Below, one piece after another: positions 3,675-62,171 of a DNA stretch of 64,000 nucleotides. This DNA is from an uncultured bacterium (GTDB lineage Bacteria; Acidobacteriota; Vicinamibacteria; Vicinamibacterales; UBA8438): positions 15,815 through 79,814 of the forward strand of contig CAWWAF010000001.1 in the NCBI GenBank assembly GCA_963934795.1, written 5' to 3'. The notes under the pieces were generated by a model that was not told the DNA's origin, searched no databases, and worked only from the letters and a program-made list of their open reading frames with translations. The position numbers and the translations under genes are program-made. How positions within the stretch are numbered: the stretch's first letter is position 1; the number at the start of each line of letters is the position of its first letter.

Positions 3675-5282
<1,608 letters not shown>

Positions 5283-7223: not shown

Positions 7224-7350
7224 GGGCAGTCTCTCTCATCCCATACGGAGGTGGGCCAGACAGGTTCCAGAGGAGGGAGTAGCCAGGCGAGGCGTGACGG
7301 CACTTGGCCGAGGCGCGACGTCTGCCGTCACGAACGCCTCTCTCGGGCGC

Positions 7351-8724: not shown

Positions 8725-8743
8725 GGCGGAAGCTGGCCTGTGT

Positions 8744-34523: not shown

Positions 34524-35969
34524 TTATGCCAGTTCCGAGAGTGTGGCGGCCACCAGGGTGTAGAAACGGGCGACGGACGCGACGTGCACCCGTTCGTCTG
34601 GAGAGTGCGGAAATTCGATTTGCGGGCCAAAGGAAATCATGTCGATGCCGGGAATCTTCTTGCCAAGAATGCCGCACTCGAGCCCGGCATGGATCGCCTT
34701 GATCTCTGGGTCGGCGCCAAGCTCGCGCTTGTGTACCGCCTTGACCACCTCAAGCAGCCGAGACTCGAGGTCCGGTTTCCACCCGGGATACGCGGCGTCC
34801 TCTTCCACCTCCGCACCGGCCAATAGACCCACCGCGCGGACCCGCCGACGCAGCGCCTCGAGCGCTGAATCAATCGACGACCGACTGCTCACGCCGATCC
34901 GCAGAGTCCCGTCCTCCTCCCCGACGGTCGCCAGGTTCACGCTCGTCTCAACCAGATCTGGGATGTCGTAGCTCATGGCCTCGACGCCATGAGGCAGTGC
35001 ATTGAGCAACGCGAGCACGCGCTCGGTCGTCGCATCGTCCCAGACGGCGGACGGCGGCGTCACGTCATCCACCGTGAGCTCCATGCCGGGGTCGGCCGGA
35101 CCATACTCGCGCTGAATCGCCTCCAGCTCCCGCTCGAGGGACGCCATCATGGCGCTGCGCTCCCCGGTCGATACCAGGAGCGTCGCGAACGCCTCTCTGG
35201 GGATCGCGTTGTGCGCGCTCCCACCGTCGATCCCGGCTAGCCGAAACCGGCAACCCGCGTAAGAGGCCCAGAGCGCCCGTGCGAGCAACTGCACCGCGTT
35301 TCCTCGCTGCAGATGGATATCGCATCCGGAGTGCCCACCCTTGAGCCCCCGCAGCGAGACCGACAACGCGGTACCCGCCGCGGGCGCTGACGTCACCGGC
35401 ACGGTGAGCTGCGTGTCGCCCCCACCGGCACAGCCGACGTAGACGATGCCATCCTCCTCGGAGTCCAGATTGAGCAGCTGACGCCCCCGCAACAGGCTCG
35501 CGTCGAGCTCCGCGGCTCCGGTCAGGCCGGTCTCCTCATCTATCGTGAACAACAGTTCCAGTGGACCGTGCGCGAACCCCGTGTCACCCATGAGCGCAAG
35601 CATGGTGGCCACGCCCATGCCGTTGTCGGAGCCGAGGGTCGTGCCGGTGGCGGTGAGGTATTGGCCATCAAGTTGGGGAACGATCGCGTCGGTCGCGAAA
35701 TCGAACACCACGTCGGAATTCTTCTCCTGCACCATGTCGAGGTGTGACTGGAGAATTGTCACGGCCGCGCCCTCGCTACCCGGGGTCCCAGGTTTTCGGA
35801 CCACGACGTTGCCTGCGGCGTCGATCTGGTGGGGCAACCCGTGCCGGTCAGCGACCGCGAGGACGTGGGTGCGCATCCGCCCCTCATCTTTTGAGGCCCG
35901 GGGAATTGTCAAAATCGTGTCGAAATGCTGCCAGACGGCGGTCGGTTCAAGCTCTGCGACGAACGTCAT
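34524..35969 (-). CDS. pepD: Aminoacyl-histidine dipeptidase (Xaa-His dipeptidase, peptidase M20C).
   Basis: AGGAGG precedes ATG 35969. Contains LEPTAVWQHFDTILTIPRASKDE, LQSHLDMV, TTLGSDNGMGVA and EETGLTGA. Confidence 0.9.
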   Translation of the reverse strand: MTFVAELEPTAVWQHFDTILTIPRASKDEGRMRTHVLAVADRHGLPHQIDAAGNVVVRKPGTPGSEGAAVTILQSHLDMVQEKNSDVVFDFATDAIVPQLDGQYLTATGTTLGSDNGMGVATMLALMGDTGFAHGPLELLFTIDEETGLTGAAELDASLLRGRQLLNLDSEEDGIVYVGCAGGGDTQLTVPVTSAPAAGTALSVSLRGLKGGHSGCDIHLQRGNAVQLLARALWASYAGCRFRLAGIDGGSAHNAIPREAFATLLVSTGERSAMMASLERELEAIQREYGPADPGMELTVDDVTPPSAVWDDATTERVLALLNALPHGVEAMSYDIPDLVETSVNLATVGEEDGTLRIGVSSRSSIDSALEALRRRVRAVGLLAGAEVEEDAAYPGWKPDLESRLLEVVKAVHKRELGADPEIKAIHAGLECGILGKKIPGIDMISFGPQIEFPHSPDERVHVASVARFYTLVAATLSELA

Positions 35970-36142
35970 GCATCCTCCTGGTACGGAATCCAGATTGCAC
36001 GGACACCATCGACACTCCGGCGGGTCGGCCCGAACGTGCGGGCGACGGCGATGCCAGCGGCGCTCATCGGACGTGCACCCGACGTGCACCCGACGTGCAG
36101 ATGACCCGCCGAGAGGGCGGGGTGTATCATCAAATCTACACC

Positions 36143-37045
36143 ATGACTGCGATACGAGCAGTGGGGACGACAGTCCCGAGGCCGGGCCGGCCAACCTCGA
36201 GGCCACGCCTCGCCTGGTATCTCGGCGCGCTTATCGTCACCGCCAGCGCGACTTCGGCGGAGGCACAGCCGGCGGCGTCTGGCGAGCCTCCCGCTCAATC
36301 TGCGCCTCAGGCGGACGCGCCTGCGGCCACCGCGTCACCGGCATCGCTCGAACGCATCAAACGCGCGCTGGACCTTCGTCGAACGGACAGGGCTCGGGCG
36401 AGCGGCCTCGAATTCCGCGAAGAAATCCTGCTACGCGACGAGCGACCGGAAACCGAGCCACTGCGTAACCTCGGCGTGGTGGCCGGGGTCGACTACGACC
36501 AATTCAGCCGCATACGTCCGGCGACGCCAGGGGCACTCCCCGGCCACTGGGACATGGTGGCGGCCATGACCCCGCGGGAGGCGACCGAGGCCGGGTCGGC
36601 CGACGTGATGGGTATCGCGACGGCGTCTGCCTTCAGCGCGGCCGCGTTCACGTTGGTCCCCGCGGCCATCAGGGCCATCGGCGGCTGGTTCGACGCCGAT
36701 GACGCCCGCGAGCCGACGACTCCGCCTGTACTCACCCGCGGGGAAGCATCCATCGCACTCGCCGGCGTATCCAACAGCGATTCGGTCATCAACGCGGACA
36801 TCGACCAACGTGGACGCACGGTCGCGTTGTCCCTCACGGTGAGGGCCGATACAGGACCCACTGCGGCGCGTGCGCTTGGGGAGGAGTTTGTTCGACTGGT
36901 CAAGACGATGGCCGCCACCGAACCGACACCCGGAGACGACCTGGGCATCGGTGCGTTCGACTATGTCGTCCACATCAGGACGCCCAGTAACGGGCTTCTC
37001 GCCCGCGGCGGCAAGTCCACGGCCGACCGAACGATTCATTGGTAA
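36143..37045 (+). CDS. Hypothetical exported protein.
   Basis: 300 aa from ATG 36143. Hydrophobic N-terminal segment (AWYLGALIVTASATSAEA). Codon position 3 is G/C-rich. No recognisable family. Confidence 0.5.
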   Translation: MTAIRAVGTTVPRPGRPTSRPRLAWYLGALIVTASATSAEAQPAASGEPPAQSAPQADAPAATASPASLERIKRALDLRRTDRARASGLEFREEILLRDERPETEPLRNLGVVAGVDYDQFSRIRPATPGALPGHWDMVAAMTPREATEAGSADVMGIATASAFSAAAFTLVPAAIRAIGGWFDADDAREPTTPPVLTRGEASIALAGVSNSDSVINADIDQRGRTVALSLTVRADTGPTAARALGEEFVRLVKTMAATEPTPGDDLGIGAFDYVVHIRTPSNGLLARGGKSTADRTIHW

Positions 37046-37064
37046 CCCGTCTGGCGGTGCGACC

Positions 37065-38552
37065 TCAGAGATCCATGATGGCCTCGATGTCTGGGTCGAT
37101 CTCTGGAGCTGGAGACGCCAGCGAGATGCCGAAGAACAGCGTCAACGACAGCAGCAGTGCCACGAACCCGCCGGTAATACCGTAGGGGATCGCAAGACCG
37201 AACACTTCAATACCGAAGTTCACGACCAGACTGGTGACGATGGCGACGTTGGCCGCGGTCGCGGTCGCCCGCTTCCAGTTGAAGCCAATGGCCACGGCCG
37301 GCACCAGCGCGGCCGCAAAGGTGCCCCACCCGAAGGCGCCGAGCAGGGCCACCAAGTCCTGCCGGGAGTAGAGCACGAAAATCGCGGATCCCACGGCCAG
37401 GACCACCGTCGCGACCCGGGCCCAGAACAGCTCGTTTGACAGTGACCGTCCGTACAAGGCGCGCGGGATGTCGTGCACGACGGCGGCGGCCCCGAGATTG
37501 AGAAAACTGTCGGCGGTGGACATGATGGCGGCAAAGAGCCCCGCGAAAACGATGCCAGCCAACATCGGACTCGCATGAAATTGCAGAAACTGCGGCGCCG
37601 CCTCGTCCGGGCTCGCCAGCTCCGGGTGGCCCCCCTGGATGACCAGTGCCCGCATCGCCAACCCGATGCTGAGCCACAGCAACGAACACAACATGTACCC
37701 GCCAGCGCTCACCGGCAAGGTGCGACGCGCGTCCTCGACCCGTCGGTTCATCATGAACTTGGTAATCACGTGCGGCTGGCCCGCCGAGCCCAGCACAAAG
37801 ACCACGAGCCAGGACAGTGACCCCATCATGCCGAGCGTGCCCCACGGGCTGACCACTTCCGGATCGTCCTCCATCAAGGCCGTGACCATCCCAGTCAACC
37901 CTCCGTCCACCGCACCCAACGCCGCGAAAAAGACAAACACCGCGGCGACGATCATGATGGCGCCCTGGACCAGGTCCGTGTAGACGGACGCCACGATACC
38001 CCCGGTGACGCAGTAGAAGACCAGCACGGCGCAGGCGATCACCATGCACGTCAGAATGGAGACCTCCGGAATGAACGACACGTTGTTCAACACATCGCGC
38101 AATACCGTGGCCATCGCGAGTATCTGCGTCCCCAGATAGCCGACGACCCCTAGCAGGATAGCCACCGCCGTCAGCAGACGCGCGCGCTCGCTGTTGTAGC
38201 GCGCCGCCACCGCGTCCGGCAGCGAGATGGTGTCCCGCAGCTCGGCGATCATGCGCAACCGGGAGGCGAGCAGGTAGAAGCTGCAGCAGAACGCCAGTGG
38301 ACCAACCACCGTCATCCAGGACGAACTCAGCCCCATCCGGTAGACCAGGCCTGGTCCACCGACGAATCCAAACCCGCTCATCTGGCTCGAGAACAACGCG
38401 AGCCCGGTCACCATCACGCCCAGGTCCCGGCCCGCCATGAAGAAATCGCGTGGAGACTTGGTGCGACGGAGGGCCCAGAGGCCGACGCCTATGCACATCA
38501 CCAGATAGACCACGACGAAGGCGAGCGTAATGACCGACCGCGAGTCGTCCAT
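37065..38552 (-). CDS. Sodium:solute symporter family transporter.
   Basis: 495 aa with about 13 TMs. Contains FFMAGRDLGVMVTGLALFSSQMSGFGFVGGPG. Confidence 0.9.
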   Translation of the reverse strand: MDDSRSVITLAFVVVYLVMCIGVGLWALRRTKSPRDFFMAGRDLGVMVTGLALFSSQMSGFGFVGGPGLVYRMGLSSSWMTVVGPLAFCCSFYLLASRLRMIAELRDTISLPDAVAARYNSERARLLTAVAILLGVVGYLGTQILAMATVLRDVLNNVSFIPEVSILTCMVIACAVLVFYCVTGGIVASVYTDLVQGAIMIVAAVFVFFAALGAVDGGLTGMVTALMEDDPEVVSPWGTLGMMGSLSWLVVFVLGSAGQPHVITKFMMNRRVEDARRTLPVSAGGYMLCSLLWLSIGLAMRALVIQGGHPELASPDEAAPQFLQFHASPMLAGIVFAGLFAAIMSTADSFLNLGAAAVVHDIPRALYGRSLSNELFWARVATVVLAVGSAIFVLYSRQDLVALLGAFGWGTFAAALVPAVAIGFNWKRATATAANVAIVTSLVVNFGIEVFGLAIPYGITGGFVALLLSLTLFFGISLASPAPEIDPDIEAIMDL

Positions 38553-39145
38553 CAGTGGGAGCCCGTCTGCCCAGACTGCGGCGAGTGACCGGCGGCAGCC
38601 TGGCGGGACGCCACGATTTCTCGAAATCGGCGCATGTCAGTCGGCGTCACAATCGACCGACTGAACAGCACGACATAGACCAGGACCACCAGGAACTCGG
38701 CCGGCCACAGCCCGTAGAGAAACCATGCGGTCGGAGCGGGGAGCCCGAAGAAGAGGGAAGGGGCCGCGTCTGTCAGGTAGCCCCGATACGACAGCACCAT
38801 CATGGTGAACAGACCACCGAGGAGCAGTCCCGAGAGGCCGAGCCACAGGCGGGTGACTCCCGCTCGCTTCACCCCAAGCATGAGACAACCAATGACGATG
38901 GCGAGTTGCAACAGACCAAACGCCCAGCCGAGCCACAGAATCGGGCTGTGGCGGACACGCCCGTCCCCGCCGTGATTCATCGATGGAAACCCCTCGTGGA
39001 TCACGCCGTGCCCGGTATAGACGCGCTGGATGGCCCCGTCCGCGGCTGCGACGTCTTCGAACGGGACCTCCTCGAGCAGAAACGCCACGTTCGTGACGAC
39101 ACACAACGCGACGAGCAACCCGAACAGGACGACTGGCAGTTTCAT
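38552..39145 (-). CDS. Small polytopic membrane protein translationally coupled to the symporter.
   Basis: 197 aa from ATG 39145 with 4 to 5 TMs. Its stop overlaps the symporter start (ATGA-type overlap at 38552). This arrangement is common for SSS accessory subunits. Confidence 0.65.
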   Translation of the reverse strand: MKLPVVLFGLLVALCVVTNVAFLLEEVPFEDVAAADGAIQRVYTGHGVIHEGFPSMNHGGDGRVRHSPILWLGWAFGLLQLAIVIGCLMLGVKRAGVTRLWLGLSGLLLGGLFTMMVLSYRGYLTDAAPSLFFGLPAPTAWFLYGLWPAEFLVVLVYVVLFSRSIVTPTDMRRFREIVASRQAAAGHSPQSGQTGSH

Positions 39146-39237
39146 CGCGGGGGTGAGGGTCTCGGTCCGGGCAGTGTAGCCCGTCCGTCCTCGGAGGTAC
39201 AATCGAAATACGTCGCTGGGCTTCACAGCTCGACGGC

Positions 39238-40494
39238 ATGGGGGACGATATGAGATACCGGTCACTGGCCTGCCTGACCGCCGTAGTGCTGACGGGATCC
39301 GCGCTGACCGCGCAGGCCCAGGACGGCGCGCTCGACTATCCGCAATGGCGCGGTGCGCAGCGAGATGGGGTGGCGGCGGCATTCGCGGAGCCCGCGAGCT
39401 GGCCGGTCGGGTTGACCCGTCAGTGGCAAGCGGAAACCGGTCTTGGCTACGCCACGCCGATTCTGGTCGGTGACCGCGTCTACACGTTTGGGCGCCTGGG
39501 CACGGACGAGGTGATCATGGCCCTCGACGCCGATACCGGCGCCATCGTCTGGCGCACGACCTACGCCGCGCCCTTCCGCGACAATGCCGGCGTGTCGCGA
39601 CATGGACCCGGCCCGAAGTCGACCCCGTTGTTCTACAACGGGGCGTTGTACACCCTGGGTATCAACGGTGTCGTCTTGGCCGTCGACGCCGCCGACGGAG
39701 CGCTCCTGTGGCGGAAACCGGCCGAAACAGTCGAACCGCTCTACGCCACAGCGCTGTCGCCGGTCGCCGATGACGGGCGGGTCATCTTTCATCTCGGCGG
39801 CCAGAACGACGGAGCGCTGACGGCGTTCGACGCCACGAGCGGCGACGTGGTCTGGAGCTGGGATGGTGACGGTCCCGCGTATGCCTCTCCGATGGTGGCT
39901 GAACTCGGCGGTGTGCGACAGATCGTCACCGTCACCCAAGCGCACGTGGTGGGGGTCGCCGCCGACAGCGGTGAGTTGCTGTGGGAGCGGCCGTTCGTCT
40001 CCCGGTCAACCAACAACTCCATCACCCCGATCGTGGATGGAGACGACGTGATCGTCACGGGGCACGACCTCGGGGTGACGAGATTCCGACCTCGGCGCAA
40101 CTCGGACCAAGGAGGCTGGACGACCGACACGCTCTGGGAAACGGCCGAGGTGTCCATGTTCATGAGCAACCCGGTGCTGTCCGGCAACACGCTGTTCGGC
40201 ATGTCGCACCTCCGCAGCGGCCAGTTCTTTGCGATTGACGCCGGCAGCGGCGCAACGCTGTGGCGCACGGAGGGGCGGGAGGCGACCAACTCCGCGGTCG
40301 TGCTAGCCGGCGACCTGCTGTTCCTCCTCAACAACGACGGCGATCTGGTGGTCGCGCGCACCACCCGATCTGGCTTCAGTCAAGTCGCCCGGTACGAGGT
40401 GTCCCCCACCGCCACATGGGCCCAGCCAGCCATCTCCGGCAACCGGGTGTTCATCAAAGACGAGTCGAACGTGACGCTCTGGACGGTGCCATGA
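39238..40494 (+). CDS. PQQ-like (BamB-type) beta-propeller repeat protein, exported.
   Basis: Signal peptide (LACLTAVVLTGSALTAQAQ), then YPQWRGAQRDG and repeated G..LW blades. The start may be 39238 or 39250. Confidence 0.85.
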   Translation: MGDDMRYRSLACLTAVVLTGSALTAQAQDGALDYPQWRGAQRDGVAAAFAEPASWPVGLTRQWQAETGLGYATPILVGDRVYTFGRLGTDEVIMALDADTGAIVWRTTYAAPFRDNAGVSRHGPGPKSTPLFYNGALYTLGINGVVLAVDAADGALLWRKPAETVEPLYATALSPVADDGRVIFHLGGQNDGALTAFDATSGDVVWSWDGDGPAYASPMVAELGGVRQIVTVTQAHVVGVAADSGELLWERPFVSRSTNNSITPIVDGDDVIVTGHDLGVTRFRPRRNSDQGGWTTDTLWETAEVSMFMSNPVLSGNTLFGMSHLRSGQFFAIDAGSGATLWRTEGREATNSAVVLAGDLLFLLNNDGDLVVARTTRSGFSQVARYEVSPTATWAQPAISGNRVFIKDESNVTLWTVP

Positions 40495-41831
40495 TCGTGC
40501 AGCCTCGGCCGGGTGGGACTGGACAGATGCGACGCACGCTGCGTGGGGCCGTCGGGCTTGTGGCCGTCGTACTCGTGGCCCTGGTGAGCGTCACGACTGT
40601 CAATGGGCAACGGGGCGGTGTGTTTCGCGAATCACGTGATCACCCCGCGATTCGCTATTCGACGGGCGAGACCACAGACGCGGTGACGGTCCTCGATAGT
40701 GCGGTCAAGGCCGGTGACGTAGCACTCGCCTTTGACCCCGCGACCGGGTACCTCCACTCGATACTCGCGGCGCTCAATGTGCCGATCGAGTCGCAGGTCA
40801 CCGTCTTCTCACAAACCAGTTTTCAGGCGAACCTCATCAATCCAGAGAACCCACGGGCGATCTTCTTCAACGACACGGTGGCCGTCGGGTGGGTCCGCGG
40901 GGGCGACGTCTTGGAGATCGCGTCGCTCGACCCGCGTCAGGGTGTGCTGTTCTATTCGATCGACCAGACGCCGGCCGAACGCCCGGAGATTCAGCGCAAC
41001 GATCGGTGCCTCGCGTGCCATCTTTCCTGGGACACGCTGGGCGTGCCCGGACTCACGACGATCAACACGTTGCCAATGCCGGACGACCCGAACGCATACG
41101 CGGTCGGGTGGACCACAGATCACCGCAGCCCACTCGAGGACCGCTGGGGCAGCTGGTATATCACCGGCGCACCGCCGGCGCTGAGCCATCTGGGCAACAT
41201 GACCGAGCCTATGGAGTACCTCCCTGGCGGACCGTCCGTGCCGGCGCCGGAACTAGCGACACTGGAGGGGCTCTTCGATCTAGCTGGGTACCCAACCCCC
41301 TACAGCGACATCGTCGCCATGCTGGTACTTGAGCACCGCAACCATATGACCAACTTGTTGGTCCGGATCGGGTGGGAGGCCAGGGTCGCCAGCCATCCGC
41401 AATCATCAGCTGAGAGAACGCGGGAAGGCCCCGAGGTCGACCTGGAGGACACGGCCGAGGAACTGGTGGACTACCTGTTATTCGTCGACGAAGCACCGCT
41501 GCCAGCCGGTCTCACGAGCACGTCTGGATTTGCGGAGCGATTCTCGTCCGAGGGGCCATTCGACGAAGAGGACCGCTCGCTTCATCAGCTGAGCCTCGAT
41601 GGTCGCTTGCTGCGTTATCCGTGCAGCCCCCTCATCTACGCTGCCGCGTTCGACGCTCTCCCGGCCGACGCGCTCGAGGTGGTGTACGCGCGCCTGTGGA
41701 ATGTCCTGTCGGGCGCCGCCGCAGAACCTCGCTATGAGGTGCTCAGTCGGCAGGATCGACTCGCGATCGTCGAGATTCTGCGGGAGACAAAGACCAATCT
41801 GCCGGACTACTTTCTGGGCGACGTGCTGTAG
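40491..41831 (+). CDS. Exported hypothetical protein with a single CxxCH heme-binding motif.
   Basis: ATG 40491 overlaps the upstream stop (ATGA). Signal peptide (AVGLVAVVLVALVSVTTVNG). Contains NDRCLACHLSWD. No named family recognised. Confidence 0.7.
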   Translation: MIVQPRPGGTGQMRRTLRGAVGLVAVVLVALVSVTTVNGQRGGVFRESRDHPAIRYSTGETTDAVTVLDSAVKAGDVALAFDPATGYLHSILAALNVPIESQVTVFSQTSFQANLINPENPRAIFFNDTVAVGWVRGGDVLEIASLDPRQGVLFYSIDQTPAERPEIQRNDRCLACHLSWDTLGVPGLTTINTLPMPDDPNAYAVGWTTDHRSPLEDRWGSWYITGAPPALSHLGNMTEPMEYLPGGPSVPAPELATLEGLFDLAGYPTPYSDIVAMLVLEHRNHMTNLLVRIGWEARVASHPQSSAERTREGPEVDLEDTAEELVDYLLFVDEAPLPAGLTSTSGFAERFSSEGPFDEEDRSLHQLSLDGRLLRYPCSPLIYAAAFDALPADALEVVYARLWNVLSGAAAEPRYEVLSRQDRLAIVEILRETKTNLPDYFLGDVL

Positions 41832-41892
41832 TCTGGCCCTGCGGATCCGCTCCGAGACACGCGCGTGGGTCGGAAGTGGCGACGAGCCCGGC

Positions 41893-42609
41893 TCAGAGGT
41901 CCGCCAGGTCGATCTCATTCCGACCCGCAACAATCTCCACCTCGTGCGTTCGTCGCTCTTTCGCGATGATCACGGTCGCCGTGTACTGCCCGGGGACCAC
42001 ATCAGATACCGTAAAGCTCCCGTCCCGTTCGGCCACAACCGCATACGGCGACTCCACCACCATGATGTCGGCGGACATCTCAGTATGGGTGTTGCATTCG
42101 ACCGTGAACTCGTCGCCCACCTCGAAGGTGTGGGTGTAGGAATTGCCGTTGATCGACGCAACGTTGAATATGGACTCGCCAGCGCTGTCTTTCACGTGCA
42201 CCGTGTGGAGATCGTCCTCGCTATTCGTAAAGTCGATGGTCTGGCCAGCTCGAACGAGGATAAATCGGGGCACGAACTGACGGCCGATCTGGTCCATCAC
42301 CGGCAGTGCCACCGGAAGCGGGACGTCCACGTCGTGTTGCGGATCGAGCAACACGATGGCTCGGATGATCGCGTCCCCCTCAGGAGCCGCGCCAACGACC
42401 TGACCCAACGCCAGATCTTGAGCCGTGGGCGCTTCGGCTTCCGGGACCGGTTCCGGCTCAACCTCTGGGGCACCGCCGCCACAGCCGCCGACCATGAGCG
42501 CCGCGGCGACCGCCGCCGCACCACTCAGTCGCCGCGCGTGGCCGGGCGACCGCCACGCAGCAAGACGCCTGGGCGCCTGAGACACGTCAGCGGAACACAC
42601 AGTCAACAT
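41893..42609 (-). CDS. Lipoprotein with a cupredoxin (type-1 copper, amicyanin-like) domain and a C-terminal carboxypeptidase-regulatory-like domain.
   Basis: Lipobox ALMVGGC. Contains VRAGQTIDFTNSEDDLHTVHV...FTVECNTHTEMSADIMV, giving His, Cys-x2-His-x2-Met. Followed by DGSFTVSDVVPGQYTATVI. Confidence 0.7.
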   Translation of the reverse strand: MLTVCSADVSQAPRRLAAWRSPGHARRLSGAAAVAAALMVGGCGGGAPEVEPEPVPEAEAPTAQDLALGQVVGAAPEGDAIIRAIVLLDPQHDVDVPLPVALPVMDQIGRQFVPRFILVRAGQTIDFTNSEDDLHTVHVKDSAGESIFNVASINGNSYTHTFEVGDEFTVECNTHTEMSADIMVVESPYAVVAERDGSFTVSDVVPGQYTATVIIAKERRTHEVEIVAGRNEIDLADL

Positions 42610-42767
42610 TGCAAGAGATCGTACCAGAACTTGCGGACCGAGGCAGGGTGGACCGGGTGGATCAGCGTCTGAGCAACGACGCGTGCCGCCGTCGCTGGAC
42701 GTGTGCGGAGATATACTGCGCACAGTTTCCGAAACAGGTGTAGCCGTTCCAGAACGGGTGAATACTG

Positions 42768-43811
42768 ATGATCTTGTGGGCGCAACGTCTTGGTCGGGTC
42801 TTCCAGCGTGGCGAATTCCTCCTTGCGCTGGTCGTGCCACTGGTGTTGGCGATCACAGTGGCCTCTGCACGACAGCAGGAACGGCCGGTCCTTCGGACTG
42901 AAGCGGACTTCCACCGCGCGATGCAAGAGCTGTCCAACTGGGGGCGGTGGGGCAACGACGACGAACTGGGGGCGGCAAACTTCATCACACCCGCTACGCG
43001 CAAGGCGGCTGCAGCCCTGGTCACCGAAGGTATCAGCGTCTCGCTCGCGCATGACGTGATCCAGGAAGACGCCGTCGACGGTGGCACCTACCTGGACCGC
43101 GAGGTGCTTCGCGTCAGCGAAACTGGCGCCGCCGACCGATACCAATACACCGGCACCTATCACGGCACGATTCACAGTCACCTGGACTCGGTAGCCTGTC
43201 ACGTCATGTACCAAGGCAAGGGCTACAACGGCGTCACGCAAGAGTCGATCGAGGCGACTGGCGGCTGTCCGCAAGGCAGTATCCATGCACTGCGGGACGG
43301 CATCTTCACGCGCGGCATCTTGTTCGACGCCACGCTGCTGCCGGGTCGCGCCACGCCTGAAGGATGGATGCCACCAGGTGACGAGATCAGTTGGGCCGAC
43401 TTGGAGCAACTGGAGGCGATCGAAGGCGTCCGTGTGGCCGAAGGCGACGTCATTCTGCTCTACACCGGCCGCTGGAAGCGGAGGGCGGCGCTGGGCGCGT
43501 GGCCGACTTCGGAAGGCGTCTCTGGATATCAGGCGGAAGTGGCCTACTTCCTGAAAGAGCGTGGCGTGTCGTTCATCGGGCACGATATGTTCAACGACGT
43601 CTCGCCCCATGGATTCCCGCCAGACGTCGGTCTCCCCCTCCATCGGCTCGCGCTCGTCTCGCTGGGTGTATCGATCTTCGACAACCTGGACTTCGAAGCC
43701 TTGGCCGAAGAAGCACGGCGGCAGAATCGGTACGAATTCCTGTTCACAGCCGCTCCACTGCGGATCGAGCAGGGAATGGGTTCGCCGTTGAACCCGATCG
43801 CCACGTTCTAG
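42768..43811 (+). CDS. Cyclase-family protein (kynurenine formamidase-like fold).
   Basis: 347 aa. Contains SNWGRWGNDDELGAANFITP and YHGTIHSHLDSVACH, which is HxGTHxD-like. Confidence 0.8.
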   Translation: MILWAQRLGRVFQRGEFLLALVVPLVLAITVASARQQERPVLRTEADFHRAMQELSNWGRWGNDDELGAANFITPATRKAAAALVTEGISVSLAHDVIQEDAVDGGTYLDREVLRVSETGAADRYQYTGTYHGTIHSHLDSVACHVMYQGKGYNGVTQESIEATGGCPQGSIHALRDGIFTRGILFDATLLPGRATPEGWMPPGDEISWADLEQLEAIEGVRVAEGDVILLYTGRWKRRAALGAWPTSEGVSGYQAEVAYFLKERGVSFIGHDMFNDVSPHGFPPDVGLPLHRLALVSLGVSIFDNLDFEALAEEARRQNRYEFLFTAAPLRIEQGMGSPLNPIATF

Positions 43812-43890
43812 GTGGACGCCCCGACGCTACGTCCGGACGCAATGCAAGCTACGCAGGGATTCCCGGCTTGGGCCGGCAAGGAGGTAATGG

Positions 43891-45108
43891 ATGTCGTTTC
43901 TGAACAGATGCGGTCTCATGGCAACGCTGACGCTGGTGGCCGTCGCGACCGCGTGTAGCGGCGACTCGGGGATGACCGATGCCGTCGACGCGCCGGCGAC
44001 CAGCCAGGCGGCGGCGGCGCCTGACGCGAGCGGCCCGCAAGCGCCGATGTTCGAAGTCGACCCGCTGTGGCCCAAACCGCTGCCCAACCACTGGCTGCTC
44101 GGTTCCACCATCGGGGTCGACGTCGACGCCCAGGACCACGTCTGGATTGTCCACCGCGCATCGACGCTGGCCGGCAACGAGACATCGGCCATGGGAGACC
44201 CGCCGACGGCGGAAGAATGCTGCTTTCCCGCCCCGCCAGTGCTCGAGTTTGACCCGGCGGGGAACCTGGTGAACAGCTGGGGCGGACCCGGTGAGGGCTA
44301 CACCTGGCCGTCCTCCAATCACGGCATCACCGTGGACCACATGGACAATGTTTGGGTCGGCGGCAACGGCGGCGCCGACTCACACGCGGTCAAATTCACA
44401 CGGAGCGGGGACTTCTTGTTGGAGGTGGGTGTACCCGGTCGTGGCCGCGACAGTCTCAGCCTCGACAGTTTCAGCCGCATCGCCAAGATCGCGTTCGACG
44501 GACCGGCGAACGAGATGTATTTCGCCGACGGCTATGGCAATCGTCGGGTGGCCGTGGTCGACGCCGACACCGGCGAGCTGAAGCGGTTCTGGGGCGCGTA
44601 CGGGAACGAGCCGGACGATGCCTATGACGAGCGCTACGTACCGGGCGGCCCGAATCTGCAGCAGTTTCTCAGTCCGGTCCACTGCGCCGAGGTGTCCAGC
44701 AGCGGTTTGATCTACGTCTGCGACCGTGCGCACGATCGGATTCAGGTCTTCCAGAAAGATGGCACGTTCGTCGACGAGATGCTCGTCATGCCAAACACCA
44801 CGGGATCCGGAGCCGCGTGGGACCTCGACTTCTCACGCGACCCGGACCAGACCTACATCTATCTGGCGGACGGTGTGAACCAACGGGTGCATATCATCGA
44901 CCGCGTGAGCCTCACGCATCTGACCAGCTTCGGCGACGGCGGCCGGCAGCCCGGTCAGTTCTTCGGCACCCACAGCATCGCCACTGACTCTGCCGGCAAC
45001 ATTTATACGACCGAGACCTACGAAGGGAAGCGGCTGCAGAAATTCGTCTACAAGGGTCTCGGTCCGGTCACGACGAACAACCAGGGCGTGGTCTGGCCCC
45101 AGCCGTAA
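43891..45108 (+). CDS. Lipoprotein; NHL-repeat beta-propeller resembling peptidyl-alpha-hydroxyglycine alpha-amidating lyase (PAL).
   Basis: AGGAGG precedes the ATG. Lipobox LVAVATAC. Contains NHGITVD, FADGYGNRRVAVVD, VCDRAHDRIQVF, PGQFFGTHSIATD. Confidence 0.85.
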   Translation: MSFLNRCGLMATLTLVAVATACSGDSGMTDAVDAPATSQAAAAPDASGPQAPMFEVDPLWPKPLPNHWLLGSTIGVDVDAQDHVWIVHRASTLAGNETSAMGDPPTAEECCFPAPPVLEFDPAGNLVNSWGGPGEGYTWPSSNHGITVDHMDNVWVGGNGGADSHAVKFTRSGDFLLEVGVPGRGRDSLSLDSFSRIAKIAFDGPANEMYFADGYGNRRVAVVDADTGELKRFWGAYGNEPDDAYDERYVPGGPNLQQFLSPVHCAEVSSSGLIYVCDRAHDRIQVFQKDGTFVDEMLVMPNTTGSGAAWDLDFSRDPDQTYIYLADGVNQRVHIIDRVSLTHLTSFGDGGRQPGQFFGTHSIATDSAGNIYTTETYEGKRLQKFVYKGLGPVTTNNQGVVWPQP

Positions 45109-45124
45109 CGGCAAGGAGGTGCGT

Positions 45125-45667
45125 GTGCGACTGCTCGCAACGCTCAGTCTGGTCACGATACTCACCACTGTCGGACCGGCGGACGGCCAGTCACGCCGAA
45201 CCGCCGCCGCCGATGAACCGGCACCGGTCCGTGGATGTCTGGACCGAGACATGATTCTAGTGGCGAACGACGTCACCCATCAGGCTCGCGGCGCCCCATT
45301 CTGGGTCGACGCAGGGCACGAGTTCGAGCTGCTGGGCGAGCGTGAGATGCTCTTCGACCTCGAGCAACACATCGGCCACGAGGTGGAGATCACGTTGCTA
45401 CTGGAGTGGGAGTCGAACGCCGGGCCGCGACCGATACCGGAACCAACGGCGCCTGGCCCTGGTCTTCCCGGGCTGCCTGGCGGGGTCGGCGGCCGTGGCG
45501 GATTCGGTGGCCAACCCAGCGGGCCCACCGGACGGCCTCAAGGGGGCTTCGGGCAGCCGTCCCAGCCCCGGCGTAGCGGTGCGGTGCGAGCTGAAGCCAT
45601 CCCGGGTATCATGACCGACTTCAGGGTCGTCAGCCTGGCATGCCGCAGTGACCGCTGGGACCGCTAG
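45125..45667 (+). CDS. Hypothetical exported protein with a Gly/Pro-rich linker.
   Basis: AAGGAGG lies 5 nt before GTG 45125 (the ORF opens at 45119). Signal peptide RLLATLSLVTILTTVGPADG. Contains PGPGLPGLPGGVGGRGGFGGQPSGP. Confidence 0.5.
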   Translation: MRLLATLSLVTILTTVGPADGQSRRTAAADEPAPVRGCLDRDMILVANDVTHQARGAPFWVDAGHEFELLGEREMLFDLEQHIGHEVEITLLLEWESNAGPRPIPEPTAPGPGLPGLPGGVGGRGGFGGQPSGPTGRPQGGFGQPSQPRRSGAVRAEAIPGIMTDFRVVSLACRSDRWDR

Positions 45668-45721
45668 CAGCCGCGCGTCAGCTCCTCCCGGGCGCGCCGT
45701 GACGAGTGCTCGACGACAGCC

Positions 45722-46726
45722 CTAGCGCTCCTGTGCCCGGGCGCCCGCAAGCAGATTGGTCATCCCGTAATTGCCTTCGTGGCAGGCGTATTCGAACAAC
45801 GGCGCGTCGGTACGCTGCATCGGGATGACGGCGGTGAACGGCGCGCTGAAAGTCGAGGGGTCGTCCACGGTGAACTCGTAGCGCAGCGTGTCGTCAGAGA
45901 CGCGCGTAAAACGCTCGATCAGGTGTAGCGACTCGCCGGACCCGTACGTGCTGACAATCGTATAGAAGCTGCCGGTCTTGTCGGTGTAGTTGTCGCTCTC
46001 GACGACCAGTGTGTCACCGTCCCACCAACCGCGTGCGTCACCCATCCACTGTCGCATCCCCTCCGGCAACGGAGGACGACCGTCCAGCGGCACCACCCTG
46101 ACCTCGTGGATCATCTCGCTGAGGATCACCACGTGACCTGGCGTCTGAAAGATCTGCACGTTGTTGTTGTACGCGCTAGGAAGCATCGGCGGCCCGGAGT
46201 TGAACCCGAGCATGCAGCGCTCCGACAGCCCAAGGTCTTCCGGCCCGGTCGCGGGGGAACCGATGAGCACTCGTGCTCGTACGGGACGGATCCCATCCTG
46301 CTTGGCGGCCCCTTGGCTCTCGGTGGCGGGTAGGCGATCGGGGATACGCCCGTCCGAGGGATCCACAATCAGCGATGTACGACGATCAGCGGTCAGGCTG
46401 TTGCCCCAGTCCCACCAGAAGTCGTTATAGGCGCGCTCGACGTCGCGCTGTGAGCCGCCGTCACGGCGGTCGGCGTTTCGCCCTTCCGCTGACTGGCGTG
46501 CAAACTCCGCCGCTTCTTCGGCCGTCAGCACTGGCTTGTCCTTCAGCGCGGCGGGTCGCTCCAACGGCGTGACCGTACGAAAGTCCCAGACGCCGCCCAG
46601 GTCGGGTGCACCCCATGCGGTGCGGGGTGCTTCCCCGCTCTGGCCGGCGGCCGCCGAGGACCCGCCGCTGAGCACGGCGACAACGACAACGATGAGGAGA
46701 CGACCTCCGGTCGAGAGCATATTCAC
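45722..46726 (-). CDS. Secreted hypothetical protein; paralog of 15146..16231.
   Basis: AAGGAGG lies 5 nt before GTG 46726. Has a signal peptide and the shared C-terminal motif FEYACHEGNYGMTNLLAGAR. Confidence 0.8.
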   Translation of the reverse strand: MNMLSTGGRLLIVVVVAVLSGGSSAAAGQSGEAPRTAWGAPDLGGVWDFRTVTPLERPAALKDKPVLTAEEAAEFARQSAEGRNADRRDGGSQRDVERAYNDFWWDWGNSLTADRRTSLIVDPSDGRIPDRLPATESQGAAKQDGIRPVRARVLIGSPATGPEDLGLSERCMLGFNSGPPMLPSAYNNNVQIFQTPGHVVILSEMIHEVRVVPLDGRPPLPEGMRQWMGDARGWWDGDTLVVESDNYTDKTGSFYTIVSTYGSGESLHLIERFTRVSDDTLRYEFTVDDPSTFSAPFTAVIPMQRTDAPLFEYACHEGNYGMTNLLAGARAQER

Positions 46727-46772
46727 GACAACCTCCTTCAGGTCAGACCCGCGCACGATGAGGACGACGCCG

Positions 46773-48107
46773 CTACCGATCGAACAACGTCAGATCAATG
46801 GCGTGGGCCATGGCGCGATAGCCGATGTCGCTTGGATGGAGCCAGTCCCCCGACTGATAGTCTTCGCGAATCTTGCTCGGGTTCGTCGTATCCCGCACGG
46901 CGGCGTCGAAATCGATGACCGCGTCGTAGGCTCCCGATGTTCGCATCCACTGGTTGAACGCTTGACGTTTCACCTCGCCGATGTCGCGGAAGTAGAACGC
47001 TCCTTCAAATGGCGCCAGCGTGGCGCCGTAGATCTTGAGCCCTCGTGCATGGACCCGTGCGACCAGTTCGAGGTGGCCCGCGATGATCTCTTCCACGGTG
47101 GGCGTTTCGGACTCGAACGCCATCCCGATGTCATTGGTCGATTCGAGCACGATCACATGCGTCACACCGGGTTGGGACAGCACGTCGCGGTCCAACCTCG
47201 ACAGCGCGCTCGGGCCAAAGAGGGCGTTGGGGTTCGGCGGCGGCGGCGCCGGCCCATCCGCGCCGCGTCGCAAAATGCCGAGACCGGCATTGTGACCAAG
47301 CACTCGGTTGCCGCCAATGCCGACATTCAGTACGCCGGGCGGCGTGCGCCCTGGCCGCTGGACGAGTCGACGAGCAAGGAAATCTGGCCACCGGCTGTGG
47401 GTGTCTGGGGTGGAGGCGGTCCCGTCTGTGATGGAATCGCCGAGGGTCACGACGACCGGGGTGCCCTCCGGGGCCAGCACCTCGACACGCGACAGATAGA
47501 ACCACGACTGAAAGGTCTGCTCGACCGGCAGGTCGGCCACACCGGTGTGATCGCCGGTTGGCGACAGATAGTTCGTGGTGAGTCCCGTCCCGTGCACGGT
47601 GGCACCGGTGCCGGACGCCGAATCGCCCTGGACGTACAGATCAATGACCAGGTCGGCAAGTGCTGGCACGCCCAACTCGACCGCATCGCTGACGACCATC
47701 GCGCCGGGCGCTACCGTGACCGATGACATGCCTGCGAACCGAAGCGCCGCTCCAGCGCTGGTGTCGATGGCGGCGTCACCGTCCCGCAACGCGACGTGGG
47801 CCGCACCGATTTCGAGCGGCTCGCTACCGAATAGGTTGGTCAGTGCCACGCGAACGGACGAGCCACCGATGCTGGTGTGAATGATCTGCCGCACGGTCTG
47901 ATCCGCAATGCGAACCGAATCAGCTCCGGGCCCGCCCTGGGCACCATCGCCTGGCGGAGGCAGCAGTACCGGGGCCGTGGCCCACGTCCCCACCCAGGCG
48001 CCCTGTTCTTGCGCCCGGGCACTGCCGGACAACGAGAACAACACGAGCAGCGCCACAGGAACGACGTGAAGCCGACCCGTGCGAAATCCGAATATGCCAA
48101 GTGTCAT
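46773..48107 (-). CDS. SGNH/GDSL hydrolase family protein, exported.
   Basis: GAAGGAG precedes ATG 48107, followed by a signal peptide. Contains VVVTLGDSITDG, GIGGNRV and, near the C-terminus, DWLHP. Confidence 0.85.
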   Translation of the reverse strand: MTLGIFGFRTGRLHVVPVALLVLFSLSGSARAQEQGAWVGTWATAPVLLPPPGDGAQGGPGADSVRIADQTVRQIIHTSIGGSSVRVALTNLFGSEPLEIGAAHVALRDGDAAIDTSAGAALRFAGMSSVTVAPGAMVVSDAVELGVPALADLVIDLYVQGDSASGTGATVHGTGLTTNYLSPTGDHTGVADLPVEQTFQSWFYLSRVEVLAPEGTPVVVTLGDSITDGTASTPDTHSRWPDFLARRLVQRPGRTPPGVLNVGIGGNRVLGHNAGLGILRRGADGPAPPPPNPNALFGPSALSRLDRDVLSQPGVTHVIVLESTNDIGMAFESETPTVEEIIAGHLELVARVHARGLKIYGATLAPFEGAFYFRDIGEVKRQAFNQWMRTSGAYDAVIDFDAAVRDTTNPSKIREDYQSGDWLHPSDIGYRAMAHAIDLTLFDR

Positions 48108-48197
48108 GGTGACTCCTTCTCCGATGCCAGGAGCATAGCCGTCCAGACTCCGTGTGACAACGCCCTCGGGCGTCCCTGCTGGTACACACTAGGCCGC

Positions 48198-48973
48198 ATG
48201 ATGCCCACAGAACACACCGTGTCTGTCAACGGATTCGAGCTGCGCTACCAACTCAGCGGGCACGGTGACCCGCTGCTGCTCCTGCACGGGTTTCTCGGGT
48301 CCGGTGACACCTGTCCACCATCCTCGGCGGCCTCGATCGGTTCGACCAGCATTACCAGTTGATCGTGCCAGACCTGCGTGGCCACGGGGGCTCGACCAAC
48401 CCCAGCGGCGAATTCAGCATGCGTCAGTCCGCGCTCGACATCTTTGCGTTACTCGATCATCTCCATATCGAGCGCTGCAGGGCGATCGGGATGAGCGGGG
48501 GCGGCATGACCCTGTTGCACATGGCCACCCAGGCCCCCCACCGGGTGCAAGCGGCGGTGTTGATCAGCGCCACGACCCACTTTCCTGAGCAGGCTCGGAC
48601 CCTGATGCGGGGTACGACGGAAGAAGCCCAGACGGAGGACAGTTGGACCATGATGCGCACCTCGCATCATCACGGGGACGAACAGATTCGGGCGATCTGG
48701 CGAGTGGCACAAGGGTTTGCCCAGAGCAAGGACGACATGGCGTTCACCGCAAAGACCTTGGCGTCCATCACGGCTCCGACGCTAGTCGTGCACGGTGACC
48801 GCGACCCCTTCTTCCCCTTGGACATCGCGCTCTCGATACACGACGCCATTCCGGCGTCCTGGCTCTGGGTCGTGCCGAACGGTGGACATCTGAGCCTGGT
48901 CGCTGAGGGCTTGTCGGATCAATTCGTGGTCACGGCCACGGCGTTTCTCCGGGGTGACTGGCCGTCGACCTAG
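48198..48973 (+). pseudogene. Alpha/beta hydrolase, frameshifted by an apparent 1-nt deletion near 48312..48313.
   Basis: Frame A gives MMPTEHTVSVNGFELRYQLSGHGDPLLLLHGFLGSGDT. Homology continues in the next frame as STILGGLDRFDQHYQLIVPDLRGHGGS...GMSGGG...GDRDP...GGH. Restoring one G in acc-tg-tcc (to acc tgg tcc) gives GSGDTWSTILGG. Confidence 0.7.
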
Positions 48974-49016
48974 TCTCCAGGACCTCTGCGTCCGCCTCGT
49001 GTGGCACACTCTACCC

Positions 49017-51014
49017 ATGTTCCACAGACACACGACACGTGCGGTCCACACCCTGTTTGCCGTGCTCCTGGTGACAGCGGCCCAGGCATCGGCCCAACAG
49101 GGCGCTCCGAACGGCGAGTGGCCGACCTACGGCGGCGACCTCGGACACACGCGGTACTCGGCACTCGACCAGATCGACGCCGGCACGTTCAATGATCTGG
49201 AATTGGCGTGGCGATTCAACACCGCGAATCTGGGGCCCGGACCGGAGTACATCTTCCAGTCGACGCCGCTGATGGTGAACGGCGTGCTCTACACGACGGC
49301 CGGCACCCGACGGGCCGCGGTGGCCCTGGACGCCACGACCGGCGAGATGCTGTGGATCCACCGACTCAACGAAGGTGAACGGGGCGCTGGCGCACCGCGC
49401 CGGTTGTCTGGTCGCGGGCTGACCTACTGGAACGACGGCGACGACGGCGTCATCTTCTACGTGACGCCCGGCTACCGCTTGATTGCCCTCAACGCCCTTA
49501 CCGGACGGCGCATGGCTGACTTCGCTGACGAGGGCATGTTGGACCTGAAACAAGGGCTGGATCAGGACCTCGCGTCGGACGCCGAGATCGGTCTGCACGC
49601 GGCCCCGGTGATCTCGAACGGGGTCATCATGATCGGCGCGGCCCATCTGGCAGGCGTTGCGCCCGCCACGAAAGAAAAACCGAAAGGCTATGTGCGCGGC
49701 TTCGATGCGCGGTCCGGTGAGCGGAAATGGATCTTCCACACGATCCCGACCGCCGACGAGCTGGGCAACGACAGCTGGGGCAACGACTCGTGGCGCTACA
49801 CCGGGAACACGGGCGTCTGGGGCCAGATGACCATCGACGAAGAGCTCGGCTACGTCTATCTCCCGGTGGAGATGCCGACCGGCGACCTCTACGGTGGGCA
49901 TCGTCCAGGCGACAACCTGTTTGCCGACAGCATTGTGGCGATCGAGATCGCCACCGGCAACCGGGTGTGGCACTTCCAGACCGTGCACCACGACGTCTGG
50001 GACTTCGACCTGCCAAGCGCTCCCATTCTGGTCGACATCACGGTGGAGGGTCTGGCGATCAAGGCGGTCGCACAGCCCACCAAGATGGGTTTTCTGTTTG
50101 TGCTCGACCGAACCAACGGCGAGCCGGTGTGGCCGATCGAAGAACGCCCGGTTCCACAATCGGACGTCCCTGGCGAGATCACCTCCGCCACCCAGCCCTT
50201 CCCCACCAAGCCACCGCCGTTCGACCGCCAAGGTGTCACAGTCGACGACTTGATCGACTTCACGCCGGAGCTACGGCGACGGGCCGAGGAAGTCGTGACA
50301 CGTTACCGGATGGGACCGCTCTTCTCCCCGCCGTCCGTGGCGACATTGGACGGCACGCTGGGAACGCTCCACCTGCCTGGCCTGACCGGGGGCTCGAACT
50401 GGCCAGGTGGCTCGTTCGACCCCGAGACCGGCATCTTCTACCAGTACTCGAAGACCGAGGTCCACGGTTTGGGGCTGGTCAACAATCCCGAGCGCTCGAA
50501 CATGGACTACATCATGGGGCGACCGCGACCACCGGCCGGGGCCGCCGGAGGACGCGGGGGTCGAGGCGGGGGCGGGTTCGTGGGTACTAACATCGAGGGC
50601 ATCACGATCGTCAAACCACCATGGGGGCGGATCACCGCCATCGACCTGAACCGGGGGGAAATCGCGTGGCAGGTGGCGCACGGCGAAACCCCGGACAACA
50701 TCCGAAATCACCCACTGCTGGAGGGCATCGATGTCCCGCGTACCGGGGTCGCGAACGCCCGCATCGGCACGCTGGTTACCAGGACGCTCGTCATCGCCGG
50801 CGACGGCGGCTTGTTCACGAACGCGGAGGGAGTCCGAGGCTCCGCGCTCCGCGCGTACGACAAGGCTACCGGCGCGGAAGTGGGCACCGTGGCGTTGCCG
50901 GTACCGGCCACCGGGTCGCCGATGACCTACATGGCCGACGACGAGCAGTATCTGGTGGTGGCGATCGCCGGTGGTGGATTCGCGGGCGAGCTGTGGGCGT
51001 TCAAAGCCCCGTAG
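49017..51014 (+). CDS. PQQ-dependent dehydrogenase (quinoprotein glucose/alcohol dehydrogenase superfamily), exported.
   Basis: Signal peptide, then GEWPTYGGDLGHTRYSALDQI. Eight-blade propeller W-motifs. Contains VHHDVWDFDLPSAP. Confidence 0.9.
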   Translation: MFHRHTTRAVHTLFAVLLVTAAQASAQQGAPNGEWPTYGGDLGHTRYSALDQIDAGTFNDLELAWRFNTANLGPGPEYIFQSTPLMVNGVLYTTAGTRRAAVALDATTGEMLWIHRLNEGERGAGAPRRLSGRGLTYWNDGDDGVIFYVTPGYRLIALNALTGRRMADFADEGMLDLKQGLDQDLASDAEIGLHAAPVISNGVIMIGAAHLAGVAPATKEKPKGYVRGFDARSGERKWIFHTIPTADELGNDSWGNDSWRYTGNTGVWGQMTIDEELGYVYLPVEMPTGDLYGGHRPGDNLFADSIVAIEIATGNRVWHFQTVHHDVWDFDLPSAPILVDITVEGLAIKAVAQPTKMGFLFVLDRTNGEPVWPIEERPVPQSDVPGEITSATQPFPTKPPPFDRQGVTVDDLIDFTPELRRRAEEVVTRYRMGPLFSPPSVATLDGTLGTLHLPGLTGGSNWPGGSFDPETGIFYQYSKTEVHGLGLVNNPERSNMDYIMGRPRPPAGAAGGRGGRGGGGFVGTNIEGITIVKPPWGRITAIDLNRGEIAWQVAHGETPDNIRNHPLLEGIDVPRTGVANARIGTLVTRTLVIAGDGGLFTNAEGVRGSALRAYDKATGAEVGTVALPVPATGSPMTYMADDEQYLVVAIAGGGFAGELWAFKAP

Positions 51015-61737: not shown

Positions 61738-62171
61738 GGGAACCTCCTTGAGACCGGTCGGAGACCGGGAGCGGATCACGAACAGATAGTGCCCAATCAT
61801 AGCGCAGACAACGCCCACTGGCGTTGTCTGGTTGTTCGGGCACACCACTATGATAAGGTGAGGAATTGACCATCTCCCGTCTCTGGTGGGTGTTGCCACG
61901 CTCACATGTGGCCGTCAGTAGATGGAAGGACCCAAGCCGATGCGCTTTCAGATTATCGTCCGTCACTCGTAAGCGCTCCGACCTCCGGTTAGGTCTGCCA
62001 GATCCGCACCCGGGACCGCAAGTCCCTCACTACAAACGCTGATTTGTCGCTGTCCCCGCCCCGGGCGGTCGAGCGACCCGTGTTCTTGCTCGTGCTGTGG
62101 GACTCCCCATAGACGAGGCTTTGCCATCGTGTCTTACAGACGGGCTGGGTAGCCCGTCCCGAGGGTGTGCC

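Follow-up and report, generated by a model that had tools for sequence, protein, structure and literature searches.

A putative exported PAL-family lyase of a marine Vicinamibacterales-type bacterium and its relation to neighbouring cyclase-family and PHM-like genes

The locus and its gene product

The window analysed here is a 64,000-nucleotide stretch of contig CAWWAF010000001.1 (assembly GCA_963934795.1, forward-strand positions 15,815 to 79,814) from an uncultured bacterium of the order Vicinamibacterales (Acidobacteriota). The subject of this report is an ATG-started open reading frame (ORF) on the plus strand at 43891..45108, hereafter the lyase gene, which encodes a 405-residue, six-bladed NHL propeller assigned to the PAL family from the ORF list, the Pfam NHL match, an AlphaFold2 (AF2) model and the match of that model to rat PAL (PDB code 3fvz), the lyase domain of PAM. 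From sequence and model, the product is judged rather likely to be a zinc-dependent lyase of the PAL family (peptidyl-alpha-hydroxyglycine alpha-amidating lyase, also named peptidylamidoglycolate lyase, EC 4.3.2.5) that is exported, probably carries a lipid anchor and works without a dedicated PHM-like partner.

The four PAL-like sequence blocks noticed in the first-pass annotation are all found in the translation: NHGITVD (residues 143–149), ADGYGNRRV (212–220), CDRAHDRIQVF (277–287) and GTHSIATD (359–366). The ORF is a real gene, since it has at least 8000 homologues at E <= 0.001 and, in a separate search, 21126 cluster representatives at the same threshold. The former are all of the candidates scored in a 90%-clustered protein collection, the best 120 of which are 54–97% identical to the query; the latter come from a HMMER pass over 1.84 billion representatives, with 957 reaching E <= 1e-30. 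A Pfam scan returned NHL (PF01436) as the sole family, at 34.9 bits against a cut-off of 20. The best NCBIfam match is ScyF (NF035926, residues 169–386), at 82.7 bits against a cut-off of 350, and the protein is thus not a member of that family, although ScyF, a protein of scytonemin biosynthesis, is also an exported bacterial NHL propeller. Scans of positions 42400–46900 for promoters and terminators found nothing.

The predicted signal peptide (43891..43956, plus strand), read from the translation and an alignment of 20 orthologues, ends in a lipobox-like VATAC. It consists of a hydrophobic stretch leading to Cys22, which is followed by Ser-Gly and by a linker that is disordered and extends to about residue 48; the predicted local distance difference test score (pLDDT) of the AF2 model is below 60 for residues 1–40. 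An equivalent cysteine was read by eye in 13 of the 20 aligned orthologues. Because of the hydrophobic stretch, Cys22, the linker and the cysteine shared by these orthologues, it is plausible that the product is an exported lipoprotein. The lipoprotein label of the first-pass annotation is therefore consistent with the N-terminus as read from the alignment.

Overall structure and structural relatives

The AF2 model was built with a 55-sequence alignment, the single-sequence model having reached a pLDDT of only 35 and being unusable. It has a pLDDT of 91 and displays six four-stranded blades. The top VIA match is rat PAL, with a Z of 33.7 and a root-mean-square deviation of 2.6 for 294 of 329 residues aligned at about 20% identity, and the register runs end to end, from model residues 45..394 to 3fvz chain positions 492..820.

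The same repeat family and fold are shared with the TRIM-NHL domains (Drosophila Thin, 6D69/6XG7; TRIM71; TRIM2/3; Brat), which are cytosolic RNA- or protein-binding modules. Three observations made here count against an assignment to PAL. The TRIM-NHL domains follow PAL in VIA at Z 32.8 and below (30–33 overall), within 1 Z unit of it. They also rank first in Foldseek, where Drosophila Thin NHL (E 1.2e-16) stands ahead of rat PAL (E 1.6e-16), and in every HMMER search against the PDB, at E values from 1e-15 to 6.9e-42. Finally, phmmer searches of the PDB with the single lyase sequence missed PAL, both with the whole protein (E <= 1) and with residues 50–270 (E <= 10). Fold alone cannot decide between PAL and TRIM-NHL, because the VIA scores tie.

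These best sequence matches and this structural tie would also fit a non-catalytic propeller whose task, like that of TRIM-NHL domains, is to bind a ligand or partner. This alternative is nevertheless considered very improbable. Three family profiles match 3fvz_A (E 1.2e-9, 2.6e-15 and 4.9e-24), in each case as a single long collinear alignment, which exceeds 200 residues for the first two, whereas the profile matches to TRIM-NHL domains consist of several short stretches aligned repeat to repeat. Moreover, the 20 orthologues, which are 62–89% identical, keep invariant His, Tyr, Arg and Cys residues at many positions, with the His, Tyr and Arg at PAL positions; a pattern of this kind, at such identities, fits an enzyme.

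The putative active site

Residue conservation was counted in the 20 orthologues and in a wider set of 55 diverse relatives that reaches down to 35% identity; it is given below as two fractions in that order. Rat PAL numbering corresponds to the 3fvz chain index plus 491 (chain range 492..820). The alignments used come from HMMER profiles, among them one of residues 55–294 derived from the lyase and five paralogues of its own genome, which placed 3fvz_A third (E 2.6e-15); the other two profiles placed PAL seventh. The profile alignments stop near residue 290, and blades 5 and 6 were compared by structural register.

The catalytic residues of PAL that the profile alignment covers are not lost in the lyase. 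By profile alignment, Arg89 (44155..44157, plus strand, as are all codons given here) corresponds to R533 in the FHRG motif of PAL (20/20, 44/55); His144 of NHGITVD (44320..44322), on the first strand of blade 2 (143–148), to the zinc ligand H585 in LPHGLSID (20/20, 52/55); Tyr215 of ADGYGN (44533..44535) to the catalytic Y654 in DGYCN (20/20, 47/55); His264 of PVHC (44680..44682), on the first strand of blade 4, to the zinc ligand H690 in VPHSL (19/20, 49/55); and Arg279 of CDRAHDR (44725..44727) to R706 in ADRENGR (20/20, 54/55). Val76 and Ile146, at the positions of the backbone ligands of the calcium site, align with V520 and L587 in the same way. The pair His361-Ser362 of GTHSI (44971..44976) corresponds to H786-D787 in MPHDI by structural register only, with His361 kept in 20/20 orthologues and 50/55 relatives. 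Further fit comes from the position of His361 on the first strand of blade 6, 97 residues past His264, where the spacing is 96 in the rat enzyme and 99 in the Exiguobacterium PAL (ExiPAL). Thus, for the zinc ligands that the first-pass annotation wished to see conserved, the first two histidines agree by profile alignment and the third is placed by register. The fold and five of the six catalytic positions align with those of PAL; the sixth position (His361), the metal bound and the reaction catalysed are inferred.

In rat PAL these residues serve as zinc-ligand histidines, catalytic Tyr654, substrate arginines and calcium ligands, roles attributed to Chufan et al. 2009. They were cross-checked against the description of ExiPAL in PMC10900485, which gives the same pattern: a predicted zinc triad of H95/H210/H309 together with Y178, R225, V43, I97 and D310, in a protein with measured PAL activity.

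Compared through that published residue description, ExiPAL is likewise a free-standing bacterial six-bladed propeller with its residues in the same order as in the lyase. The second histidine and the arginine are 15 residues apart in both proteins, and the second and third histidines 99 apart in ExiPAL against 97; ExiPAL has an aspartate after the third histidine (D310) where the lyase has a serine. The rat enzyme (3FVZ/3FW0) is similar in spacing, with 105 residues between the first and second histidines (120 in the lyase) and 96 between the second and third (97). Unlike rat PAL, the lyase stands alone, with neither PHM nor a membrane anchor fused to it, and is predicted to be a bacterial lipoprotein; it has in addition an N-terminal closing strand, an insert at residues 90–116 with a Cys-Cys pair, and longer loops at 181–198 and 240–262. 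This vicinal pair, Cys110-Cys111 (44218..44223), is present in 20/20 orthologues and in 39–40 of the 55 relatives, and Cys265 (44683..44685) adjoins the putative zinc ligand His264; the PAL alignment shows no counterpart of the pair or of Cys265.

Four features of this comparison tell against a PAL active site. Arg279 discriminates little, because it is part of the generic NHL repeat motif. The pairing of His361 with H786 is a full-length structural register and not a residue-by-residue alignment. The calcium-site Asp787 of PAL is, by the same register, replaced by Ser362, a serine in 20/20 orthologues, and Asp is not among the five commonest residues at this position in the 55-sequence set. 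Lastly, the equivalent of PAL Met784, as placed by structural register, is a glycine.

The three histidines, the tyrosine and the arginines might catalyse some chemistry other than N-C(alpha) cleavage of alpha-hydroxyglycine, such as a hydrolysis or another lyase reaction on a non-glycine substrate, so that the protein would be a PAL by homology only. The low identity to the rat enzyme, the altered calcium-site and Met784 positions, the invariant cysteines just described, the ScyF match far under its cut-off, the small-molecule hydrolases and cupins found as fusion partners of relatives, and an uncharacterised cyclase-family hydrolase as neighbour all lend something to this alternative. It is considered unlikely, as the positions assigned to PAL catalysis are conserved in a family that extends down to 35% identity and the assayed bacterial homologue, ExiPAL, is a true PAL.

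Other NHL proteins of the same genome bear related sites. The second, more distant PAL-like NHL gene of the window (60667..61914, minus strand; 79 bits to the orthologue hidden Markov model, HMM) encodes His, Tyr, His, Arg and His at the PAL positions, with Arg89 replaced by His. In a group of six NHL paralogues (C33:28905-29948, C39:2120-3331, C148:2605-3951, C2:15527-17137, C42:15523-16986 and C63:13075-14175), His144 is kept, Tyr215 is replaced by His and His361 by Glu, and His264 is kept except in the C63 protein, which has Gly; these substitutions suggest that the group has a different metal site.

Family distribution and domain fusions

The nearest public loci belong to metagenome-assembled genomes (MAGs) of Vicinamibacterales, and relatives with 55–69% identity are found in MAGs of Gemmatimonadota, Longimicrobiales, Gammaproteobacteria and Rhodospirillaceae. 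Automatic annotation gives the name peptidylamidoglycolate lyase to the nearest ESM Atlas clusters (scores 0.99 and 0.98); the Atlas holds no structure for the lyase, nor for the 473-residue PHM-like protein of the window described below. PMC10900485, citing US patent 9,096,843, states that experiments have identified PAL activity in several bacterial proteins and that the natural functions of these are unclear; according to PMC9155641, the combination of ExiPAL and rat PHM amidated every one of 20 DLSYXG peptides. Since the Atlas cluster names and an assayed bacterial PAL already place PAL-likeness on record, the lyase gene is an added member of an already named bacterial family, and its PAL-likeness itself is not new.

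Longer relatives of the lyase include tandem propellers and fusions to a metallo-beta-lactamase-fold hydrolase, a cupin, an FAA hydrolase, an SGL lactonase and a periplasmic binding protein; the fused PAL-like propellers are proteins P0424-P0427, P0422-P0423, P0251, P0250 and P0265. The fusion partners hint at small-molecule catabolism.

The cyclase-family neighbour

Directly upstream of the lyase gene, at a distance of 80 bp and on the same strand, lies a gene for an exported hydrolase of the cyclase/formamidase family (42768..43811, plus strand; PF04199, Pfam E 1.1e-9). Its only PDB relative is 5ibz, which is uncharacterised.

Neighbouring genes were counted around orthologues of the lyase gene in the best 80 of at least 589 loci, with flanks of up to 10 kb and 1.51 Mb in all. 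The counts were made by tblastn and HMM scans, as clustering of stop-to-stop ORFs is unsuitable owing to spurious long ORFs in G+C-rich DNA. The cyclase-family gene is a recurrent neighbour and adjoins the lyase orthologue in 25 of the 80 loci, with 21 close copies directly upstream on the same strand and four convergent downstream copies that are 39–42% identical. One of these neighbours (G108:C1:5783175-5784163, locus L177) matches as two overlapping pieces in different frames and is possibly frameshifted.

The pairing recurs among paralogues. The genome to which the window belongs (3.87 Mb) contains 26 NHL ORFs, eight of which are close PAL-like ORFs, and four of these eight (on contigs C1, C13, C36 and C46) have one of eight cyclase paralogues within 4 kb. 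The expected number is 0.146, and none of 20000 shuffles reached 4. Among the 21 PAL-like genes of three complete genomes of the same family, five have a cyclase-family gene within about 3 kb, where about 0.4 are expected by hand arithmetic from gene counts and genome sizes. The pairwise identities of lyase and cyclase paralogues are only partly congruent; they establish neither simple co-duplication nor recruitment on several occasions.

Contigs 90–97% alike from four seawater RNA libraries cover parts of the lyase and cyclase-family genes, and one 207-nt contig spans the intergenic gap (43714–43920). The lyase is most likely co-expressed with the upstream cyclase-family hydrolase, and the two proteins probably act together.

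Several observations speak against a tight partnership. Fifty-five of the 80 orthologous loci have no cyclase-family gene, and the pairing occurs only at Vicinamibacterales-type loci. Among 80 loci examined for the C46-type paralogue described below, 79 lack it. Two complete genomes of the same family, G044 and G072, have their best PAL-like orthologue at a great distance from their best cyclase orthologue. The RNA-library evidence is weak, because the contigs belong to relatives and may include carried-over DNA.

Other genes around the lyase

A Gly/Pro-rich ORF of 182 residues (45119..45667, plus strand) begins 10 bp downstream of the lyase gene. It has no Pfam or NCBIfam match and is kept in three of the 80 loci, and its standing as a possible third gene of the unit is doubtful. 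Positions 45124–45700 have no RNA-library contig cover, which is uninformative either way.

The next gene (45722..46756, minus strand) encodes an exported protein of 344 residues that has no Pfam or NCBIfam match. Its family, with 73 ORF matches in the 3.87-Mb genome, is among the largest paralogous families there. It was considered as a recurrent lyase neighbour and rejected, since 73 copies make proximity expected by chance.

More widely, positions 34524..51014 encode an M20 peptidase, a sodium:solute symporter, a PQQ-type propeller, a cupredoxin-like protein, a GDSL hydrolase and a PQQ dehydrogenase. This part of the window is a periplasmic scavenging neighbourhood, and its upstream part is syntenic in about 24 of the 80 loci.

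The PHM-like genes of the window

Two PHM-like ORFs exist in the window, as the first-pass annotation had reported. The nearer one (30824..32245, minus strand) encodes a haem-c-fused protein of 473 residues; the other (2..958, minus strand) is cut by the window start and is complete at G000:C1:15336-16778, and its second Met gives the probable start at 835 that had been proposed. The distances from the lyase gene, earlier put at 12 to 30 kb, are 11.6 kb and about 43 kb. The same partner gene stands next to each of the two PHM-like genes.

Pfam finds weak cytochrome c matches in the 473-residue protein. The invariant columns of its family are CxxCH, CC-HH-H, HYH, HMH and a Met, among which are the HH..H, HxH and M columns. 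The PHM-like label holds for the family to the extent that 14 of 20 orthologues match Cu2_monoox_C (PF03712), weakly, at E <= 1 with a best value of 2.3e-4; the 473-residue protein itself has no match. PF03712 has three matches in the own genome, with one paralogue above the cut-off, and is carried by 26% and 15% of the members of the neighbouring Atlas clusters. No match to the CuH domain (PF01082) was obtained for the PHM-like family, in a search that matched nothing in control genomes either. Searches of the PDB with the protein and its profile found no PHM, and none of the papers listed in literature searches treats bacterial haem-fused PHM-like proteins.

Altogether the own genome contains 22 PHM-like genes in 23 ORFs. 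The split gene, G000:C49:18547-19962, occupies two of these, and a frameshift or an assembly error is possible.

Association of PAL-like and PHM-like genes

The first-pass annotation raised the possibility of a hydroxylation/lyase pathway acting on peptides or glycine-like conjugates. In the form considered here, the haem-c-fused PHM-like monooxygenases would hydroxylate glycine-like conjugates and the lyase would split the product, in a two-step periplasmic pathway. Conservation of the PAL residues in the lyase, the weak Cu2_monoox_C matches of the PHM-like family and the predicted export of both kinds of protein are compatible with this scheme. Proximity was compared with shuffled positions of the PHM-like genes. 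For all 26 NHL ORFs, one lies within 2 kb (0.87 expected), one within 5 kb (1.45 expected) and three within 15 kb (2.81 expected). The eight close PAL-like ORFs gave one against 0.27 (2 kb; P 0.25), one against 0.45 (5 kb) and two against 0.93 (15 kb). These shuffles show no proximity excess, and the PHM-like gene nearest to the lyase gene itself is 11.6 kb away.

The orthologous loci gave a similar picture. PHM-like ORFs, six in total, lie within 10 kb of the lyase orthologue in three of the 80 loci (L040, L042 and L074), and these cases do place PHM-like genes beside orthologues of the lyase gene. The density is about 4 per Mb around orthologues, compared with 5.7 per Mb throughout the own genome, and the genomes that contain L042 and L074 likewise have an expanded PHM-like family, with 41 and 28 match pieces respectively. 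The three complete genomes of the same family, which carry 42, 31 and 28 copies, have five PHM-like ORFs in four of 20 regions around their 21 PAL-like genes; about 3.0 are expected, by hand arithmetic from the copy numbers.

Genome co-occurrence was counted in 251 Acidobacteriota genomes at E <= 1e-40, in a scan that scored five to seven candidates per genome and may have missed some. Both families occur in 24 genomes, PAL-like genes alone in 10, PHM-like genes alone in 13 (including G024) and neither in 204, so that 34 genomes are PAL-positive and 37 PHM-positive. The raw association, 24 of 34 PAL-positive genomes, is strong and is the kind of signal that the first-pass annotation had suggested looking for. 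An unrelated 523-residue family of the window, taken as a control, occurs in 15 genomes, 13 of which are PHM-positive and 12 PAL-positive. Because this control co-occurs as strongly, the joint presence of the two families follows lineage, and there is no excess over the lineage effect. Conversely, genomes G254 and G255 hold lyase orthologues and have no PHM-like match at E <= 1e-20.

Fusions were also sought. None of 270 lyase relatives matches the PHM-like HMM, and none of 103 longer forms contains a copper-monooxygenase or cytochrome domain.

With proximity equal to the shuffled expectation, PHM-like genes at three of 80 loci and no fusions, the specific PHM/PAL gene neighbourhood is not borne out: the lyase gene is not specifically tied to the PHM-like genes of the window. 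The impression that the two halves of PAM stand together arises from the size of two paralogous families, both very large in this lineage. The two-step pathway is accordingly regarded as quite unlikely for this lyase.

One paralogue stands closer to the proposed arrangement. On contig C46, a PHM-like gene (8315..9751), a 353-residue member of the 45722..46756 family (7245..8306) and a PAL-like gene (5076..7217) lie on one strand, in a single run, and the PAL-like product is a 713-residue double propeller with the full PAL residue set. Similar clusters occur at L187 and L193, in two sister genomes, and on several marine, lake and soil metagenome contigs, with like clusters at the metagenome loci L120, L141 and L145. 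When the C46 protein was used to find 80 metagenome loci (0.54 Mb), seven of them proved to contain a PHM-like ORF, a point in favour of a two-step pathway. The density there is about two to three times that of PHM-rich genomes, a comparison whose background is those genomes rather than the metagenome organisms themselves, and for this reason the C46-type clustering stays a lead and not a result.

Proposed function and implications

The reading preferred here remains that of an exported, probably lipid-anchored, zinc-dependent PAL-family lyase, which works as one of several paralogues. Zinc would be held at the mouth of the propeller by His144, His264 and His361, on the first strands of blades 2, 4 and 6. 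The alpha-hydroxyl of the substrate would bind the metal and be deprotonated by Tyr215, with the carboxylate held by Arg279 and Arg89, and the N-C(alpha) bond would then break to give a primary amide and glyoxylate. The natural substrate is probably a small carbinolamide of the N-acyl- or ureido-alpha-hydroxyglycine type, rather than a peptide hormone precursor, and may be met in the periplasm while organic nitrogen and carbon are scavenged.

On a broader scale, some bacterial PAL-like lyases and haem-c-fused PHM-like monooxygenases might together form a periplasmic two-step pathway of oxidative N-dealkylation, operating in trans for most paralogues, including the product of 43891..45108, and in cis for those of the C46 type. 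This proposal is tentative and, on balance, improbable. If it is true, the cyclase-family hydrolase beside the lyase gene would either act on the amide that is produced or supply the precursor.

As tools for peptide amidation, bacterial PALs are already in use, while PMC10900485 states that their natural role is unclear. The present analysis places a well-conserved, marine Vicinamibacterales-type member in the PAL family residue by residue. Its statistically supported neighbour, the exported cyclase/formamidase-family hydrolase, is the place to seek the physiological substrate, and the C46-type clusters offer a concrete, testable lead for a real bacterial PHM/PAL pairing.

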